A stretch of DNA of 64,000 bases from Escherichia phage AV116. Shown here piece by piece: positions 31,435-37,673 of the stretch. The position numbers were made by a program, and so were the translations under genes. Below the pieces are notes generated by a model that had not been told where the DNA came from, made no database searches, and saw only the letters and a list, made by a program, of their open reading frames with translations. How positions within the stretch are numbered: position 1 is the stretch's first letter; every line of letters begins with the position of its first letter. The DNA lies in the sequence record OR352946.1. One strand, 5' to 3'.

Positions 31435-31893
31435 TTATAGGAGGGTAGTGAGCACCTTATATAATGATTTGCCCATTACATATTCCCATTGAGAAGGTTT
31501 AATTAAAGCGAATGCATCAAATTCAGGAATCTGTCGTCCGTCTGGGAATGTATGATAGGAATTACAAACACTGTTTCTGAATTGCTCGTGCTCTACAGGG
31601 ATGGTATATAGGAACAGATGAATATTCTTATTGTCTGAGTAATGATGTTCACCTAGGTCTTTCAGGAAGGCAGGGTCATATTGTGTAAACCCAGTTTCTT
31701 CTTCGCATTCGCGAATAGCGGCTTCAATAGGAGATTCGCCAGGTTCGACACGGCCTTTAGGAATATCCCACCGATGAGCTAAAGAACCTTTAGGACGAGA
31801 ACCAGTTACACGCCCCATGAATAATTCTTTATCTTCGGTAAGGAAAATAATACCGGCTGATAGTTCTTTCACTTTATTTTTCTTACTCATCAT
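31435..31893 (-). CDS. nudE: Nudix hydrolase NudE
   Basis: Nudix box GRVEPGESPIEAAIRECEEETG. Confidence 0.85.
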   Translation of the reverse strand: MMSKKNKVKELSAGIIFLTEDKELFMGRVTGSRPKGSLAHRWDIPKGRVEPGESPIEAAIRECEEETGFTQYDPAFLKDLGEHHYSDNKNIHLFLYTIPVEHEQFRNSVCNSYHTFPDGRQIPEFDAFALIKPSQWEYVMGKSLYKVLTTLL

Positions 31894-32119
31894 CTCGGTC
31901 CCATGATTTGGCCATTAATTCGGACATAAATTCTTCAATGCGCGTTTCTTTAGATGGACTTTCACTATTAGAGACCGCAAGTTTGTAATCTGCAATAGGA
32001 CAGAACATATCAAGGTCCATATTAAGGTCGTCTTTGATTTTTTCTTCTGACACATCTTTATCGTATGTGTACAGATAACTATCACATGATTCTGATTTAA
32101 TGTAAATTGCTATACTCAT
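31883..32119 (-). CDS. hypothetical acidic protein
   Basis: ATG at 32119 in ATGA overlap. Confidence 0.4.
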   Translation of the reverse strand: MSIAIYIKSESCDSYLYTYDKDVSEEKIKDDLNMDLDMFCPIADYKLAVSNSESPSKETRIEEFMSELMAKSWDRDDE

Positions 32120-32340
32120 CTCAAATTCCTGCATTCGGTAATAAAACGTTCAACTTCATTATTCTTGTCTTTATGTTCTTGTAAACTACTTTTAATAAGA
32201 TTAATAATGATAGCGACAGTGCCGCCGCCAATGATGCCACCAATAATACTTACGATAGTAGATGTTAATAAGATAGCAATAATATCAACAAAACCGAAAG
32301 AACTCACCTTAGTACTAAAAAAACCATATAGACGGTACAA
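32116..32340 (-). CDS. small membrane protein with C-terminal F-I-T-E-C-R tail
   Basis: hydrophobic core IIAILLTSTIVSIIGGIIGGG; tail ERFITECRNLR. Confidence 0.45.
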   Translation of the reverse strand: MYRLYGFFSTKVSSFGFVDIIAILLTSTIVSIIGGIIGGGTVAIIINLIKSSLQEHKDKNNEVERFITECRNLR

Positions 32341-32584
32341 ATATAATCCATCCTGTTATCCATTGGCACTTATTGAAAAACTTTTCAAGCTCAGCTTGAG
32401 TTGTTCGTATTACTTCATCGATAGGTTGATATCCGTTAATGTATCTGTTCACGATAATACCTGCTGACTGGTCGATTTTAAATTCTTGGCAAATATGTTT
32501 CACTAAGTATGATGGACATCCTGTCCAATCTACTGAATAGTATGAAATACCTTCATTGCCGTCGTCTATATTATTGTTAATCAT
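32315..32584 (-). CDS. hypothetical protein
   Basis: 89 aa ORF; C-terminal hydrophobic segment. Confidence 0.35.
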   Translation of the reverse strand: MINNNIDDGNEGISYYSVDWTGCPSYLVKHICQEFKIDQSAGIIVNRYINGYQPIDEVIRTTQAELEKFFNKCQWITGWIIFVPSIWFF

Positions 32585-33270
32585 TACCAGCCTTCCATAG
32601 GGAATTCCAGATAAACTTGAGCATTGACACGAATTTCATTGGTAATCTTTTTAACTCGGTCTGTATTACGAGATACACGTCCGAACCAACGCCATCCGTT
32701 ACTAATTGCACGAGAACCAGTGTGCCATGTTTGCCAATCAAACTGAAGAAGAGTACGATCTGGAGCTTCCCATTTCTCTAGTTCGCCTTTTTCGATTTTT
32801 TCGAGGACTTCTTTGTGCCACTGGCGATAGATAAGTTCGCCATCAGGAATCTGACTGAACTCTGCAGTTCCTGTTGCAAAATGAGTAGGACACACATCAG
32901 CGTTAACAAGACCAAGAATATGTTCAGACAAATAGCGAGGATTGTCATAGTCAGGTTGTCCTGCAGTAATAAAATGTTGACCAACCGGAATATCCGGGCG
33001 TGGTACGTCATCATGGTGATAACCAGGAATAGCAGGATACCAAACAGGCATCAGCATGTGGACTCGTGAATCAAATACTACATCCGAGTCTTTCCAATCG
33101 TCAGGGAGATTTTGGATAAAGCTACGAGTAATTGGACCGCCATTATCAAAAGCAAAATTCAAATCGCAATTAAAGAACATAGGCTCGTTTTTAATCTGGT
33201 CATTTTTAATCGCATGAGCAAAACCACCTACTGCACGAGCTTGACTATTAAACACTTTAGAACTATTCAT
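32584..33270 (-). CDS. hypothetical protein, 228 aa
   Basis: ATG at 33270 with GAGGAAA SD; Trp/His-rich. Confidence 0.5.
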   Translation of the reverse strand: MNSSKVFNSQARAVGGFAHAIKNDQIKNEPMFFNCDLNFAFDNGGPITRSFIQNLPDDWKDSDVVFDSRVHMLMPVWYPAIPGYHHDDVPRPDIPVGQHFITAGQPDYDNPRYLSEHILGLVNADVCPTHFATGTAEFSQIPDGELIYRQWHKEVLEKIEKGELEKWEAPDRTLLQFDWQTWHTGSRAISNGWRWFGRVSRNTDRVKKITNEIRVNAQVYLEFPMEGW

Positions 33271-33271
33271 A

Positions 33272-33577
33272 TTATTTTCCTCGGCATTCTTTAATGAAAT
33301 TTTCTAGATTGGTAGATTCAATAGCTTTTTTACGAGCTTCTGCATGTTCTTCTTCGGACAATTTACATTTATAATTGACCCAGACATTATGGTCGAAACT
33401 AGTCGTGGCATATAATAACAATGCTCCAGCGAATAGCAAAAACGGTGATAAGAATACAAAACCAGGAACACCATCCATACTGTAAGCCTTTTGTAATACT
33501 GCAACAGAAAGAGCTGCGTAAAAAGGTGATGCAAATATTGTTAAAAGACCAATTCGGTTGGTTTCGCCTAATTTCAT
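33272..33577 (-). CDS. small membrane protein with C-terminal ENFIKECR tail
   Basis: two TM segments; tail NLENFIKECRGK. Confidence 0.5.
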   Translation of the reverse strand: MKLGETNRIGLLTIFASPFYAALSVAVLQKAYSMDGVPGFVFLSPFLLFAGALLLYATTSFDHNVWVNYKCKLSEEEHAEARKKAIESTNLENFIKECRGK

Positions 33578-33606
33578 AATATTCTCCTCATGTTTTAATA
33601 GGACTA

Positions 33607-33635
33607 CTATAACATAATCCTATAATTATGTAAAC
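33607..33635 (-). promoter_or_regulatory. T4-type early promoter-like element in hairpin
   Basis: minus strand GTTTAC-N17-TTATAG. Confidence 0.5.
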
Positions 33636-33647
33636 AGTTTTGCGAAA

Positions 33648-34604
33648 TTATTTGAAAGGTTTTACCATATGAAAATTTTCTTTAAACCGTTTGATGTAAT
33701 CATTTTTGCCGAGCTTATGATACATAGCCACTACTTCATAATAGTTCTCGTATGCGTACTCACGGAACCAACCGGAGGTGATGCTTGTGCAGACTTTTTC
33801 TAATGCCATCATGAAACTGGCTTCAGGGTTAATTTTAAAGTCATTAGGAATCTGAGAACGTTCTAACGCTAGTACACATGATTCTTCGTATACGCCGGCC
33901 AATTTGACCATTTCCGGTAATGATTCGAACTTCTCGCGTGAGGTCATGACTTCAGAACCATCTTTCATATAAAATGTATACGCTGGACGGTCTGTTAGTG
34001 CAATGGCTTCATGAATAGTATCATGGTCATATGTATAGATGTCATCTTTAAAGAACGCACTTTTAGAAGTGTCAAGAACTGGGTGAGCATAATTCAAGGT
34101 TTCTTTCTGGCGTTTCAGCATAATTTCAGTAAGTTCATCGTTCAGTGTAACACCTTTACCACGAAGATACTGAATATGGTTCATAGTCTTTAAAAAGAAT
34201 GGATTATTTTTCTTGAAACGATGAGACATCTTAATTGCAAGACATATCTCAGGAGTTGCCCAGTAAAACCCGTTCAAACGGTCTTTAGTCAAATTTTTCT
34301 TGGCGTATTTTAAAAGGTCATAAGAAGACGTGAAATCTTCAGGAGTGAGTTCACCGACTAATTCACGGACATTAGTGATTGCCGGAACAATATATGCTTC
34401 AAAATGAGTTTCGCGTCCATTATGGAAGCATTTGAAAACTTGGACATCAGGGTTATCTTGGTGAACATATACACCCATCATTTGATTTTTGAATGCGTTC
34501 CAAGAACCTTGGTCCGCAATAAAGTCCCAATCACTATTTTTAATAGCGCTAGAATCAATAAGACCGTGATAGTGAAGTGCACGAGAACCAATAACTAACA
34601 TCAT
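33648..34604 (-). CDS. hypothetical protein, 318 aa
   Basis: long co-oriented ORF. Confidence 0.5.
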   Translation of the reverse strand: MMLVIGSRALHYHGLIDSSAIKNSDWDFIADQGSWNAFKNQMMGVYVHQDNPDVQVFKCFHNGRETHFEAYIVPAITNVRELVGELTPEDFTSSYDLLKYAKKNLTKDRLNGFYWATPEICLAIKMSHRFKKNNPFFLKTMNHIQYLRGKGVTLNDELTEIMLKRQKETLNYAHPVLDTSKSAFFKDDIYTYDHDTIHEAIALTDRPAYTFYMKDGSEVMTSREKFESLPEMVKLAGVYEESCVLALERSQIPNDFKINPEASFMMALEKVCTSITSGWFREYAYENYYEVVAMYHKLGKNDYIKRFKENFHMVKPFK

Positions 34605-34632
34605 AATATTTTCCTCGGATTAATTCATTAAC

Positions 34633-34884
34633 TTAAATTTCACGACATGCGATATTATATTCATCCCAGAGGTCATCATGTGAAGCTTCTACCAATGGAA
34701 CGATTGTACCGTTTATGTCTTCATTATAAGGGCAAATTGTACAGTGCGCATCTTCGAATCGGATGCCTTTGTGTTCAGATTTTTTATAACGCATATCGAA
34801 TATCTTTGCAAACTTTTCACGAGTAATAGTTTTAGCAACCACTTTGGTTCCAATACTTTCGTAATAAATCATTGTGGACTCCAT
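34633..34884 (-). CDS. hypothetical protein with C-terminal N-I-A-C-R tail
   Basis: 83 aa; CTICPY and C-terminal EYNIACREI. Confidence 0.45.
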   Translation of the reverse strand: MESTMIYYESIGTKVVAKTITREKFAKIFDMRYKKSEHKGIRFEDAHCTICPYNEDINGTIVPLVEASHDDLWDEYNIACREI

Positions 34885-34901
34885 TTAATTTGATAGGACT
34901 A

Positions 34902-34930
34902 CTATAACATAGCCCTATCTTGTTGTAAAC
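34902..34930 (-). promoter_or_regulatory. T4-type early promoter-like element
   Basis: minus strand GTTTAC-N17-TTATAG. Confidence 0.5.
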
Positions 34931-34934
34931 TGTT

Positions 34935-35132
34935 TTAGCAAGAATAACTAGATGATACCCAGCCTTGAACAGTGATACTATTGTGGGATAATGAGATCGC
35001 GTCCTGGAGATTCAGACCTGCGTTATCTTCAATCCATAATGTAACTTCTTCACGTTCTTCTGTTGCAATTTGGAACAGGTTTTCCAGGGCAGCTACTGCC
35101 GTACGTACAGCACAATCTAATTCACGAGACAT
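34935..35132 (-). CDS. small protein, C-terminal GWVSSSYSC family member
   Basis: 65 aa ending QGWVSSSYSC. Confidence 0.45.
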   Translation of the reverse strand: MSRELDCAVRTAVAALENLFQIATEEREEVTLWIEDNAGLNLQDAISLSHNSITVQGWVSSSYSC

Positions 35133-35141
35133 ATTGTTTCC

Positions 35142-35414
35142 TTAGCAAGTGTGAGAAGATGCGACCCAACCACCAGTTTCGAGGCTCAGGTTGTAGTCGT
35201 ATTGGTAAACGTCGGCCCATTCAGCATAGCCGTTTTTTGTACAACGTTCAAGATCAGCTTTAAGATGTCCGGGTGAATGATAGGTTCCGCCCATACCATA
35301 AGCCGGATACAAATTAAACGTGGTGTTTTGTTTATCAGCAATTTCTTTGGCAGCCTCAATAGCTGCATAGATTTTTGCTACAGCTTCAGCCAGTTCGGTT
35401 TGTTCTTTAGACAT
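35142..35414 (-). CDS. small protein, C-terminal GWVASSHTC family member
   Basis: 90 aa ending GGWVASSHTC; paralog of 35424..35729. Confidence 0.45.
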   Translation of the reverse strand: MSKEQTELAEAVAKIYAAIEAAKEIADKQNTTFNLYPAYGMGGTYHSPGHLKADLERCTKNGYAEWADVYQYDYNLSLETGGWVASSHTC

Positions 35415-35423
35415 AATGATTCC

Positions 35424-35729
35424 TTAGCACAACGCAGAAGACGAAACCCAAGCACCTTCAGTAATAACGTAACCATTACCTTCACGCTTAACATCGCCAC
35501 CATTATTTTCAATTTCATTTTTCATCCACTGGGATACGATTTCACCCTTAGGATAATAAGTACGACCGCTACCATAATCACCTACAGAAAATGATACGGC
35601 ATATTGGTCTGCGATCTTTGTTGCTTCTTCTTCGATACGTTCAGCTTGATTCAGAAGTTTATAAATTGCATCTGAAGCGGATTTGGCATCATTAAACTCT
35701 GGTACTTTAATTTCAATAATCTTACTCAT
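35424..35729 (-). CDS. small protein, C-terminal GAWVSSSALC family member
   Basis: 101 aa ending GAWVSSSALC. Confidence 0.45.
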   Translation of the reverse strand: MSKIIEIKVPEFNDAKSASDAIYKLLNQAERIEEEATKIADQYAVSFSVGDYGSGRTYYPKGEIVSQWMKNEIENNGGDVKREGNGYVITEGAWVSSSALC

Positions 35730-36085
35730 TTTCTACATTCCTTAATAAAGTTTTCGATTGTTTCATTTTCACGTTTAGCTAGAAGTTCATTATAACTAAT
35801 CATTTGAGAAGCGTAAATCTTTTTATTTTTCTTGTTATGGTTTATAAAATCGTAGTAAAAATAGACTACAGTACAAAATGATGCGATGGATGCAAAGGCT
35901 TGGGTATACCGTAAGTCCTGCCATTGGTCTGTGAATCCACCAGTGTTCCCTATAAATCCTAACACAACGCCGTCAATAAGAAATCCAACTAATCCAAAGG
36001 CAAATCCCATGCCAATACTCATAATAAAAATTAGAATGTTCTCACCAAGAGAAGGCCATATGGTTAAGAGTTGAGGCTTTTGCAT
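35726..36085 (-). CDS. membrane protein with C-terminal ENFIKECR tail
   Basis: two TM segments; tail IENFIKECRK. Confidence 0.5.
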   Translation of the reverse strand: MQKPQLLTIWPSLGENILIFIMSIGMGFAFGLVGFLIDGVVLGFIGNTGGFTDQWQDLRYTQAFASIASFCTVVYFYYDFINHNKKNKKIYASQMISYNELLAKRENETIENFIKECRK

Positions 36086-36459
36086 CTTATTTCCTTAACG
36101 AATTCCATAGCTTCTTCATATTCATACTTTTTAACAGCTTCATCATACTGAGCTTGGGCTTTTGCGCACTGAACTTTCCATTCTCTTAATCGGGCTCTGT
36201 GATGACGGCCTTGGTGCCAATATCCTACCCAATTAATAGGCATTAATAAAAACGGTACAATAAGTGGTGCGACGAACATTAATGAAAATGCTGCATCAGA
36301 CGATATAACTTCACTAGAATCTAAAACAGCTCCTATAATCATAAAGATTAAAAATGCTAAAGCTAAAATAGGGCCAAATAATACTTCATTTGGGATTAAT
36401 TTACGCTTGTATTCATACGCCCAGGGCTTACTTGGCATGTATAGGGTTGGCTTTGACAT
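36064..36459 (-). CDS. membrane protein with C-terminal K-E-I-R-C tail
   Basis: two TM segments; probable ATG at 36459 (track start 36489 is TTG). Confidence 0.4.
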   Translation of the reverse strand: MSKPTLYMPSKPWAYEYKRKLIPNEVLFGPILALAFLIFMIIGAVLDSSEVISSDAAFSLMFVAPLIVPFLLMPINWVGYWHQGRHHRARLREWKVQCAKAQAQYDEAVKKYEYEEAMEFVKEIRCKSLNS

Positions 36460-37030
36460 ATTCTCTACATTCCATAATAAATTGCTCAAGGATTAAATTG
36501 TTAGTGAAATTAGGACTAACAACCATAGTTTCATAAAGCGCATCAATAGCACTTAAAGCATCAACTCTTTTAAGCAAAGGCTTGCCTTCATACATAGTTT
36601 CAGAATCGATGATTAACGTAAAGTAATATTTTTTATTATCGACTAGAACTTCTGTATCGATATAAAACATATTAGACCTCAGAAGCTTATCTCTAAAGCC
36701 ATAATAATCTTCAGAGCGTTCGCTGATATATTCCCATTCAGTGTTTAAACAACAAACAGACCACGTAGGAGCAACGAAATCAGTGAATCTAATATCATGG
36801 TCTGCAACTAGTTTAGCAATAGCTCCGATATCATGAATCATAATACCTGGGGCTAATAAAGATTTTCTGCTATGGCTAGCCGTTTTCTCGGTGGTCTCAT
36901 AAGAAGACGACCAGTACCATTTACGTCCAGTTGCAACATATCGTAATGAATCAACTAAAGACGTAGGTGGATTTACCTTATCTCGGAACTCTTCGAACAT
37001 TGAGTCAATATCATTATTTTGGTTTCGCAT
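36428..37030 (-). CDS. hypothetical protein with C-proximal F-I-M-E-C-R motif
   Basis: ATG at 37030 (MRNQNND...); ..EQFIMECREYVKANPIHAK. Confidence 0.45.
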   Translation of the reverse strand: MRNQNNDIDSMFEEFRDKVNPPTSLVDSLRYVATGRKWYWSSSYETTEKTASHSRKSLLAPGIMIHDIGAIAKLVADHDIRFTDFVAPTWSVCCLNTEWEYISERSEDYYGFRDKLLRSNMFYIDTEVLVDNKKYYFTLIIDSETMYEGKPLLKRVDALSAIDALYETMVVSPNFTNNLILEQFIMECREYVKANPIHAK

Positions 37031-37079
37031 GTTAACTCCTTTATTATCCAAAAGGAGGACCGGAGTCCTCCGTATTATT

Positions 37080-37673
37080 TTATTTCAAAGAGTTAATATA
37101 TTCTTGTACATCAGCAGAAGTGGTTTCGACACCAGCTGGAGTGCCATTGAACGTTTCAACACGAGTCAGAGTGTCTTCGATATCAACCTTAGTCAGTGCA
37201 GCGATTTCAATTACATCATCAGCCGTAGAGATACCAAGGGCATTAGCTGCTCGAGTTTCACGAATGTATTCGAGTTTGATTGCCAGATTCTGACGAGCAT
37301 CATCAAGTTCAACCACCTTACGAGCAATTTCAATTCGCATAGCGGCATACCCGTCAGCTTTTGTATTAAGTTGTTCGGCAGTTCGACGATACAGAAGACC
37401 AAGCTTAGCATGCATGGTAACATCTTGTCCTTCAGCCAAGAGCTTACGAATTTCACGTTCCTTAGAAGCGGCTTGCTTGTTCTTTTCATTAACAAGTTCG
37501 CGAATACGTTTTTCTTCATTAATAGATTTAACAGAAGCCGTTTTTAGTTCTTTGATTTGGGTAATCAACTTATCTGCAGCTGCGTTATACTGTTCTTCGA
37601 CAGTCAGATTTTTAGCCATAGCAGTACCCAGTTTAGTGCGGATGAATTCAACAAGTTTTTTCAGTGTGTTCAT
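37080..37673 (-). CDS. coiled-coil protein
   Basis: ATG at 37673 ([10 protein letters not shown]...); heptad-rich; promoter repeat copy B upstream. Confidence 0.5.

Follow-up and report, generated by a model that had tools for sequence, protein, structure and literature searches.

We describe here a short C-terminal tail shared by the products of several otherwise different small genes of Escherichia phage AV116 (OR352946.1), and propose that it is a common docking tag for which the product of the adjacent gene e.6, a predicted relative of PspA, is the likeliest partner; we give this reading a probability of roughly 0.45. The broader statement, that the tail is a protein–protein (or protein–assembly) motif of some kind, we regard as likely. 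The window analysed is a stretch of 64,000 nucleotides (nt) from an RB69-like Mosigvirus, 96–98% identical to RB69-type Mosigviruses; gene names are taken from the RB69 annotation, and the tail genes form an array on the minus strand that is headed by e.6 and closed by nudE (Table 1). A preliminary description of this DNA had suggested that the tail serves a common partner, and we infer that this is still the best reading.

The six-frame translation of the window contains exactly four matches to FI.ECR, compared with 0.033 expected from residue frequencies (Poisson P ~5e-8). All four copies are 11 residues or fewer from the stop codon of a real gene (e.2, the RB69ORF133c homologue [referred to here as ORF133c], e.3 and e.5), and together they span 4.4 kb. 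As had been noted earlier, the Arg codons of the four copies differ (AGG, CGA, AGA and AGA); the Cys codons are TGC, TGC, TGT and TGT. With a relaxed pattern near the ends of open reading frames (ORFs) there are six matches among 462 stop-to-stop ORFs and 0.87 expected by shuffling, and the two extra matches (one ORF in a non-coding frame and one unrelated gene) are at chance level. No valid tail match beyond chance is present outside the block in the RB69-type genome. The preliminary description assigned the motif to at least five ORFs, which is correct for e.2, ORF133c, e.3 and e.5, where the match is exact, and for e.4, which has a true variant with Ile at the Cys position; it is not correct for ORF135c (EYNIACREI, Arg codon CGT), which we excluded because its homologues end in ...NTYCYEI* or ...NDYVAEI*. 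An ORF treated there as an entity of its own (32116..32340) is not a separate gene and corresponds to the C-terminal half of e.2. Hydropathy agrees with the earlier statement that four of the carriers are two-transmembrane (two-TM) proteins, with two TM segments in each of e.2, ORF133c, e.3 and e.4; the end of the second segment (TM2) is 26–60 residues from the C-terminus in the membrane carriers.

The tail is conserved throughout the Straboviridae, from Escherichia to Aeromonas phages. We examined this with two scans of viral contigs, anchored on e.6 and on nudE, together with single look-ups; ORFs in the fetched loci were called by a simple first-ATG rule, and families are BLAST clusters. 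The T4 proteins end in ...EFVIDCRKIK* (e.3) and ...KFVKESRCKSQS* (e.4), and the T4 e.5 ending includes ...KFVKECREYVKA... The T4 e.2 gene is truncated, and full-length e.2 of other Tequatroviruses ends in ...NFITECRKLK*. The e.4 variant is also kept elsewhere (e.g. FVKESR in T4 and FIKEVR in Gaprivervirus), and both Gaprivervirus and Dhakavirus retain the tail on homologues of e.2, e.3, e.4 and e.5. The scans add Karamvirus, Moonvirus, Winklervirus, Pectobacterium phage PM2, three lineages of Aeromonas phages and further T4-like contigs, some of which are probably Klebsiella phages, the sole basis for this being an e.6 match to Klebsiella phage PWKp16. There are three to seven carriers per genome, and about 19 BLAST-level families carry the tail, nearly all of them located between e.6 and nudE. 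When a strict tail is defined as [FW][IVL]xxC[RK] in the last 26 amino acids (aa), 63 of the 64 found in the 20 loci with full flanks are between e.6 and nudE, and outside the block there is one in 396 upstream ORFs and none in 165 downstream ORFs.

In the more distant e.6 clades the tail is still present, and its form switches clade by clade. Examples are YIxxCR in loci L082 and L083 (YIMQCRNKL*, YIEECRGYHA*), FIxYCI in L078 (FINYCI, FVEYCI), and [ST]I[ILV]xxAR in L080 and L084 (SILANAR, AIVHRAR, SIIKHAR, TIIARAK), a clade whose e.6 matches PspA_IM30 directly. The preliminary description had allowed for a motif confined to forced overlaps with a downstream start or Shine-Dalgarno sequence and unconserved elsewhere, and this is not what is seen, as homologues in many genera keep the tail. 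There are also losses of single carriers. One example is Escherichia phage LF82-8 (L004, 4990-5090; H158), in which an internal deletion in e.3 has taken out the TM body; the final 30 codons, tail included, survive as a non-coding remnant before the next gene. Two other Mosigviruses (H159 and H160) have a similar partial tblastn match covering e.3 residues 90–119 only; we considered and rejected a 'tail swap' in H158–H160, since LF82-8, the one sequence read, has the internal deletion. These single-carrier losses (the LF82-8 deletion, the truncated T4 e.2 and the frameshift in e.2 of the window) fit a redundant repertoire.

The family-weighted logo of the tail begins with L, T, I or F at position −3 and E or N at −2, followed by any residue, F (0.92) or W at position 0, I (0.64), V or L, then K (0.57), a variable residue (E, 0.37), C (0.66), I, M or V, and R (0.89) or K, after which there are 0–15 further residues. 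The consensus for the proposed helix is [L/I/T]-[E/N]-x-[F/W/Y]-[I/V]-K-x-[C]-[R/K]-(K), with the conserved positions −3, 0, +1, +4 and +5 on one helix face and polar, variable residues at +2 and +3. A low-confidence AlphaFold2 (AF2) model of e.5 (predicted local distance difference test score, pLDDT, 58.5) has a helix at residues 179–194 that spans the tail. Within families the tail is better conserved than the body; in an alignment of 13 e.5-like sequences (15–47% identity) the only invariant columns are M1, N96, F184, C188 and R189, the last three being the F, C and R of the tail. Whole lineages, including the e.4-likes, fam53, fam93/101/157 and the distant 'xxAR' clade, have I, V, M, S, L or A in place of the Cys. 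From the basic stretches after TM2 and at the N-termini, the positive-inside rule predicts that the tails face the cytoplasm. Codon usage is free at the conserved residues (TTT 76, TTC 16 and TGG 8; TGT 37 and TGC 37; AGA 36, CGT 25, AGG 13, CGA 8 and CGC 8), and the replacements conserve amino-acid character (F/W, I/V/L, C/I/V/M and R/K), which together show selection at the protein level rather than a nucleotide linker, in agreement with the earlier proposal.

The bodies that carry the tail are of three types: soluble e.5-like proteins of 154–273 aa, soluble proteins of 92–116 aa, and two-TM proteins of 88–197 aa. We compared family profiles with the tails removed using hhalign, and the resulting probabilities link e.5-like families to one another (68–79%), as well as e.2-like (62–84%) and e.4-like (44–78%) families, linkages that we treat with caution because false positives are common with TM proteins; most other pairs are below 20%, and no link between soluble and membrane bodies was found in this comparison. 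ORF133c matches the PHROG family of e.2 (phrog_2203, E = 1.6e-3) and is weakly related to the e.2 C-terminal half. The membrane carriers are probably old paralogues, and, as judged from sequence comparison, the tail is common to at least three or four unrelated soluble bodies as well as to the membrane carriers. The earlier characterization of the bodies as 'otherwise unrelated' is therefore accurate for several body types, including soluble versus membrane proteins, but not for some two-TM subsets nor for the e.5-likes, which are linked. None of the carriers matches a family in Pfam, NCBIfam or PADLOC, and none has a PspB or PspC domain; their PHROG families are labelled as of unknown function or only as 'membrane protein'. 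We noted that the top 14 Foldseek matches of e.5 are the small alarmone synthetases RelP and RelQ (E ~7e-3, TM-score ~0.2), given that a Nudix hydrolase gene (nudE) closes the block, but these matches, obtained with the poor e.5 model described above, are non-significant and are not used here.

The e.6 gene is far more conserved than the carriers, with 47–100% identity and matches in 1102 phage records. Elsewhere it is annotated as hypothetical or, wrongly, as 'host specificity protein', and it is of unknown function in PHROGs. Transitive profile matches and a predicted fold place e.6, as a phage representative, in the PspA/IM30/Vipp1 family (ESCRT-III superfamily) of membrane-remodelling and membrane-repair proteins. 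Direct searches are negative: the e.6 of the window has no Pfam match at E ≤ 1, PspA_IM30 included; the e.6-family (A7) profile finds Vipp1 among PDB sequences at E = 6.2 only, though the alignment is colinear (4-142 versus 4-144); and hhalign of e.6 against an approximate PspA sequence gave no match. An exhaustive e.6 profile search yields a compact family with 47 representatives, each about 200 aa long, and two of these exceed the gathering score of PspA_IM30 (PF04012; 33.9), at 35.1 bits (P0087, e.6-profile E = 5e-23, full-length and colinear) and 39.0 bits (P0090, e.6-profile E = 6e-21). When a profile was built from 21 distant members, it aligned colinearly over positions 1–145 with PDB chains of Vipp1 and E. 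coli PspA, at E = 2e-5 to 2e-4. The AF2 model of e.6 contains helices at residues 2–18, 25–80, 86–145, 151–162, 165–171 and 186–196, with pLDDT ~90 in the hairpin, and fits the PspA-family plan of an N-terminal helix alpha-0, a long alpha-1/alpha-2-3 hairpin and shorter C-terminal helices. Foldseek gives Vipp1 in the first eight places for this model (probability 1.0, E = 1.6e-3 to 1.6e-2), with CdvB2 also among the matches. Literature searches for e.3, e.4, e.5, e.6 or a PspA homologue of T4-like phages returned nothing relevant. As a lead only, we note that the N-terminal helix of e.6 (LVEFIRTK) resembles the first half of the tail, with differences at positions +4 and +5.

Adjacency to e.6, which the preliminary description did not remark on, is the most informative context for the tail. 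The gene immediately after e.6 carries it in 65 of 71 loci, representing 33 distinct sequences and including Serratia and Aeromonas phages. Five of the six exceptions look technical, with a split e.5 (L011 and L047), a partial e.6 query (L065 and L068) or the end of the locus (L032); in the sixth (L058) no ORF was found. Because every locus was anchored on one of two genes, e.6 or nudE, the sampling itself favours co-occurrence with e.6 to some degree, a bias that the nudE-anchored and the Aeromonas loci offset only in part.

The presence of the tail on unrelated bodies, and always beside a PspA-like e.6, leads us to the docking-tag proposal. The tail, maintained by selection on the protein, would be the final two turns of an amphipathic helix in the cytoplasm and would act as a common docking or assembly tag on the fast-evolving proteins encoded from e.6 to nudE. 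The tagged set would consist of two-TM inner-membrane proteins with cytoplasmic C-termini, soluble e.5-likes and soluble proteins of about 100 aa. The likeliest partner would be the product of e.6, the highly conserved first gene of the array; like e.5, it would be located in the cytoplasm, on the same side as the tails, and the tail proteins would bring it to the inner membrane or regulate it there. A precedent for such docking is the binding of PspA by PspC's C-terminal cytoplasmic domain (PMC5596341). A more elaborate form of the proposal, which we put forward only tentatively, is that e.6 is a phage ESCRT-III/PspA-like membrane machine addressed by a modular docking code of about 10 residues on ever-changing two-TM and soluble adaptors. 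Each adaptor would then recognise its own membrane target or condition, and would guide e.6 there or regulate e.6 polymerisation, possibly in keeping the inner membrane energised during infection, in lysis inhibition or in superinfection.

Several observations weigh against this proposal. In Enterobacter phage CC31 (L051) neither e.6 nor e.5 is present at the locus, yet five intact tail genes remain; it is absent from the 31 Karamvirus e.6 matches, and its tRNA cluster abuts the first tail gene (L051 5600-6700), with e.6, e.5 and their neighbours, present in every one of the 31 other Karamvirus records, missing. The tails are therefore not strictly dependent on e.6. There is no sequence similarity between the tail and PspB or PspC, and the carriers have no Pfam family. 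The synteny of e.6 and the tail genes could reflect no more than a conserved operon, many membrane carriers may be distant paralogues, with the tail shared in part by descent, and much of the evidence comes from first-ATG ORF calls.

The overlap between the motif and the downstream Shine-Dalgarno sequence, reported in the preliminary description, is real. The ATG of the next gene is usually −1 to +10 nt from the Arg codon, even where the carrier's own stop is 15–45 nt further on (e.5 and e.4), and a purine-rich, Shine-Dalgarno-like run is within the motif codons, 5–9 nt before that ATG. For example, the e.3 K-E codons AAGGAA (35738-35743) are the Shine-Dalgarno for a gene whose ATG is at 35727-35729, the e.4 ATG starts 4 nt past the Arg codon of the e.5 tail, and the e.3 start ATG sits in the R-C codons (AGATGC) after the e.4 tail. 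Positions 2 and 3 of the tail generally provide the Shine-Dalgarno (AAGGAA, AAAGGA, GAGGAA or AAGGAG), and otherwise it is supplied by the Arg and following codon (AGGAA, CGAGGAAA or AGGAG). The array genes are translationally coupled, such that positions 2–3 (K-E, K-G or E-E) or Arg and the next codon do double duty, and this accounts for the K-E, K-G and R-K preferences but leaves F, I and C unexplained. That the conserved element is the RNA itself, an initiation region with an A/U-rich tract and a Shine-Dalgarno for the coupled next gene, with the peptide as a by-product, is nonetheless very unlikely. F, I, C and R survive synonymous and multi-base codon changes, replacements conserve amino-acid character and not bases, and the Shine-Dalgarno migrates between codons while F-I-x-x-C-R stays put. 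The tail is retained where the next gene is 38–67 nt away (fam48, fam53 and fam174), and in the e.5-likes although the next ATG is 22–31 nt past the motif; it is neither limited to forced downstream starts nor, given the free F, C and R codons, conserved as bases. Protein and RNA constraints both act, the protein constraint first. The same placement relative to the downstream start codon, and not to the carrier's own stop, would be expected of a nascent-chain arrest peptide of the SecM/MifM type, in which the tail, within the ribosome tunnel, would link the carrier's membrane insertion or folding with translation of the next gene, and a body-independent motif and the distance from TM2 to the C-terminus would also suit it. 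However, a folded helix interface better suits the i, i+3, i+4, i+7 periodicity and the exchange of one hydrophobic residue for another, stalling on the tail would leave the next start covered by the ribosome and not exposed, and the tail persists without an adjacent downstream gene, and we consider this explanation extremely improbable.

Descent offers a different account, in which tandem duplication and fusions of one ancestral small protein have left a tail that stabilises each protein itself (e.g. by self-association of the C-terminal helix), with no common partner. The tandem gene arrangement, the links among tail-less e.2-like, e.4-like and e.5-like profiles, the match of ORF133c to the e.2 PHROG family and the retention of tail genes in CC31 without e.6 are all in its favour. 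It is unlikely, however, as the tail is also on soluble bodies (fam48, fam94/102, fam174 and the e.5-likes) that are not detectably related to the membrane proteins, is the only segment common to the ~19 families, accounts for most of the invariant e.5-like residues, and has variants that change together by clade on different bodies, which suggests a shared external constraint. CC31 would also be accommodated if the partner were a host machine (ClpXP, FtsH or Lon) or another host protein, with the bodies binding targets and the tail acting as a degron or adaptor tag that delivers those targets or times the carrier's own turnover; a short, exposed C-terminal tag on variable bodies and the predicted cytoplasmic location agree with this. 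We think it quite unlikely, because the tails, with acidic residues inside them and K, R or a polar residue last, differ from the non-polar ends of ssrA-type tags (such as -LAA), the 0–15 residues that follow the motif reach 5–15 in the e.5-likes and e.4, such that a free C-terminus is not required, and no data point to a protease. The single Cys could alternatively be a shared metal, disulfide or modification site, being present in about two-thirds of families and invariant in the e.5-like alignment. Whole lineages have another residue for Cys and yet retain the remainder of the tail; with only one Cys per tail and a reducing cytoplasm in addition, such chemistry is highly improbable, and the Cys-dependent modification suggested in the preliminary description is disfavoured by the replacements in the e.4-likes, fam53 and the 'xxAR' clade. 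Recombination sites for cassette shuffling are unlikely to be the main role of the motif DNA, with copies in one genome only ~75% identical over 21 nt and exact runs of at most about 8 nt. We also compared the tail with the FtsZ C-terminal peptide (IPAFLRK), the gp45-clamp motif (SLDFLF) and the ClpX XB motif (LRVVK), and rejected mimicry of these because neither the spacing nor the C-R pair, which is the best-conserved part of the tail, fits.

The proposed arrangement resembles the Psp system (PspA, PspB and PspC) in having a PspA-family effector (e.6) encoded beside small inner-membrane proteins with predicted cytoplasmic C-terminal helices that might dock onto it; LiaH with LiaI in Bacillus is a similar pairing. 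It differs in that the phage carriers have no PspB or PspC domain, that each genome has several of them with unrelated bodies, soluble ones included, and that the tag is a motif of about 10 residues conserved while the bodies diverge. It is also phage-encoded and has no PspF-type regulator. ESCRT-III subunits have MIM motifs, short amphipathic helices at the C-terminus by which they dock onto MIT domains, and the likeness is in the use of such a helix as a modular docking code in an ESCRT-III-superfamily system; however, the phage motif is on the neighbouring proteins and not on the ESCRT-III-like protein itself, its sequence is unrelated, and its partner is only proposed. T4-type translational coupling junctions (ATGA overlaps) similarly have stop/start overlaps, and here the tail codons hold the next Shine-Dalgarno, but ordinary junctions conserve no peptide, whereas the tail keeps F, I, C and R despite codon changes and also where there is no adjacent gene. 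The capsid targeting sequence of T4 (MKTYQEFIAE) shares an E-F-I-x-E string with the tail, but is N-terminal and cleaved after Glu by the prohead protease. We rejected a capsid-targeting or gp21-cleavage role for 'FIxE', as the tail is C-terminal, is partly on two-TM proteins, and its Glu is not conserved outside the T4/RB69-type phages (G, Y, N, S, Q, H or M in other genera).

Annotation of the T4 genome gave e.2–e.6 no function, and none has been assigned to them since. Should the tail prove to be a docking tag for a PspA/Vipp1 homologue of phage origin, this block, among the best known of the 'hyperplastic' T-even regions, would be a coherent system that combines one conserved effector with many exchangeable adaptors, and would contain, to our knowledge, the first PspA-family machine carried by a virulent phage. 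The F, C and R residues would then offer a simple mutable peptide handle on how an ESCRT-III-like protein is targeted in bacteria. The region is also a clean case of DNA that is constrained twice over, as the coding sequence of a protein motif and as the ribosome-binding site of the gene that follows.

Table 1. Genes, tail motifs and other features of the e.6–nudE block in the AV116 window.
Feature	Coordinates	Strand	Remarks
e.6	37080..37673	-	predicted PspA/IM30/Vipp1 family (ESCRT-III superfamily); invariant upstream neighbour of tail genes; proposed partner
e.5	36428..37030	-	soluble, 200 aa, tail carrier; directly after e.6
e.5 tail core F-I-M-E-C-R	36464..36481	-	11 residues after core; ORF end ...EQFIMECREYVKANPIHAK*
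e.4	36064..36459	-	two-TM, variant tail
e.4 variant tail F-V-K-E-I-R	36085..36102	-	Ile at Cys position; ORF end ...EFVKEIRCKSLNS*
e.3	35726..36085	-	two-TM, tail carrier
e.3 tail core F-I-K-E-C-R	35732..35749	-	end ...ENFIKECRK*
Three small paralogues	35424-35729, 35142-35414, 34935-35132	-	
ORF135c	34633..34884	-	non-member, ends EYNIACREI*
ORF134c	33648-34604	-	DUF7277 + DUF7275
RB69ORF133c homologue	33272..33577	-	two-TM, tail carrier
ORF133c tail core F-I-K-E-C-R	33281..33298	-	end ...ENFIKECRGK*; Shine-Dalgarno of next gene shifted to CGA-GGA-AAA
ORF132c	32584-33270	-	
e.2, whole	32116-32584	-	split in window
e.2 N-terminal half	32315..32584	-	soluble domain; cut off from C-terminal half by frameshift
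e.2 C-terminal half	32116..32340	-	TM region and tail
e.2 tail core F-I-T-E-C-R	32128..32145	-	end ...ERFITECRNLR*; Shine-Dalgarno of next gene in AGG-AAT
Homopolymer run splitting e.2	32317..32323	+	A-run on + strand, T7 on coding strand; T6 in six relatives
ORF130c, then nudE	nudE at 31435-31893	-	nudE closes block

The T7 run in e.2 is either a true frameshift mutation or a sequencing error. The 101-aa ORF at 35424-35729 is intact in the window and is annotated as two ORFs (ORF139c and ORF138c) in the RB69 reference (L001 5547-5853), indicating a frameshift in the RB69 record. The start of ORF130c is ambiguous. The E-C codons of every tail (GAATGY) hold an out-of-frame ATG, and the one in e.2 shares the frame of ORF130c (MQEFEMSIAIY...), giving a candidate start within the e.2 tail (window 32119-32134, minus strand) in addition to the annotated ATG five codons downstream.

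Two copies of a ~40-nt cassette (..ctGTTTACAnaa....ta.gg.tatgTTATAGTagtcctat..) are present at ~33585-33650 and ~34890-34940 on the minus strand, upstream of ORF133c and ORF135c respectively. These look like T4-type early promoters and occupy the only sizeable intergenic gaps of the block. ORF132c is extremely conserved between genera (...NEIRVNAQVYLEFPMEGW*) and has no match in Pfam, NCBIfam or PADLOC; its H-H-D-D ... W-H-T-G strings resemble the motif of 2-oxoglutarate/Fe(II) oxygenases. The block also contains a second family defined by its C-terminus, the three small soluble paralogues of Table 1, which end in G-W-V-S-S-S-x-x-C* (e.g. WVSSSYSC, WVASSHTC and WVSSSALC) and are present in three to five copies per genome. 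In the loci inspected this family co-occurs with ORF134c, and in enterobacterial-phage loci also with ORF132c; all three are absent from T4 and L031, and Aeromonas phage 31 (L074) has the GWVSSSxxC family and ORF134c together. The Ser-Ser-Ser-x-x-Cys ending suggests that these proteins may give rise to a modified peptide.

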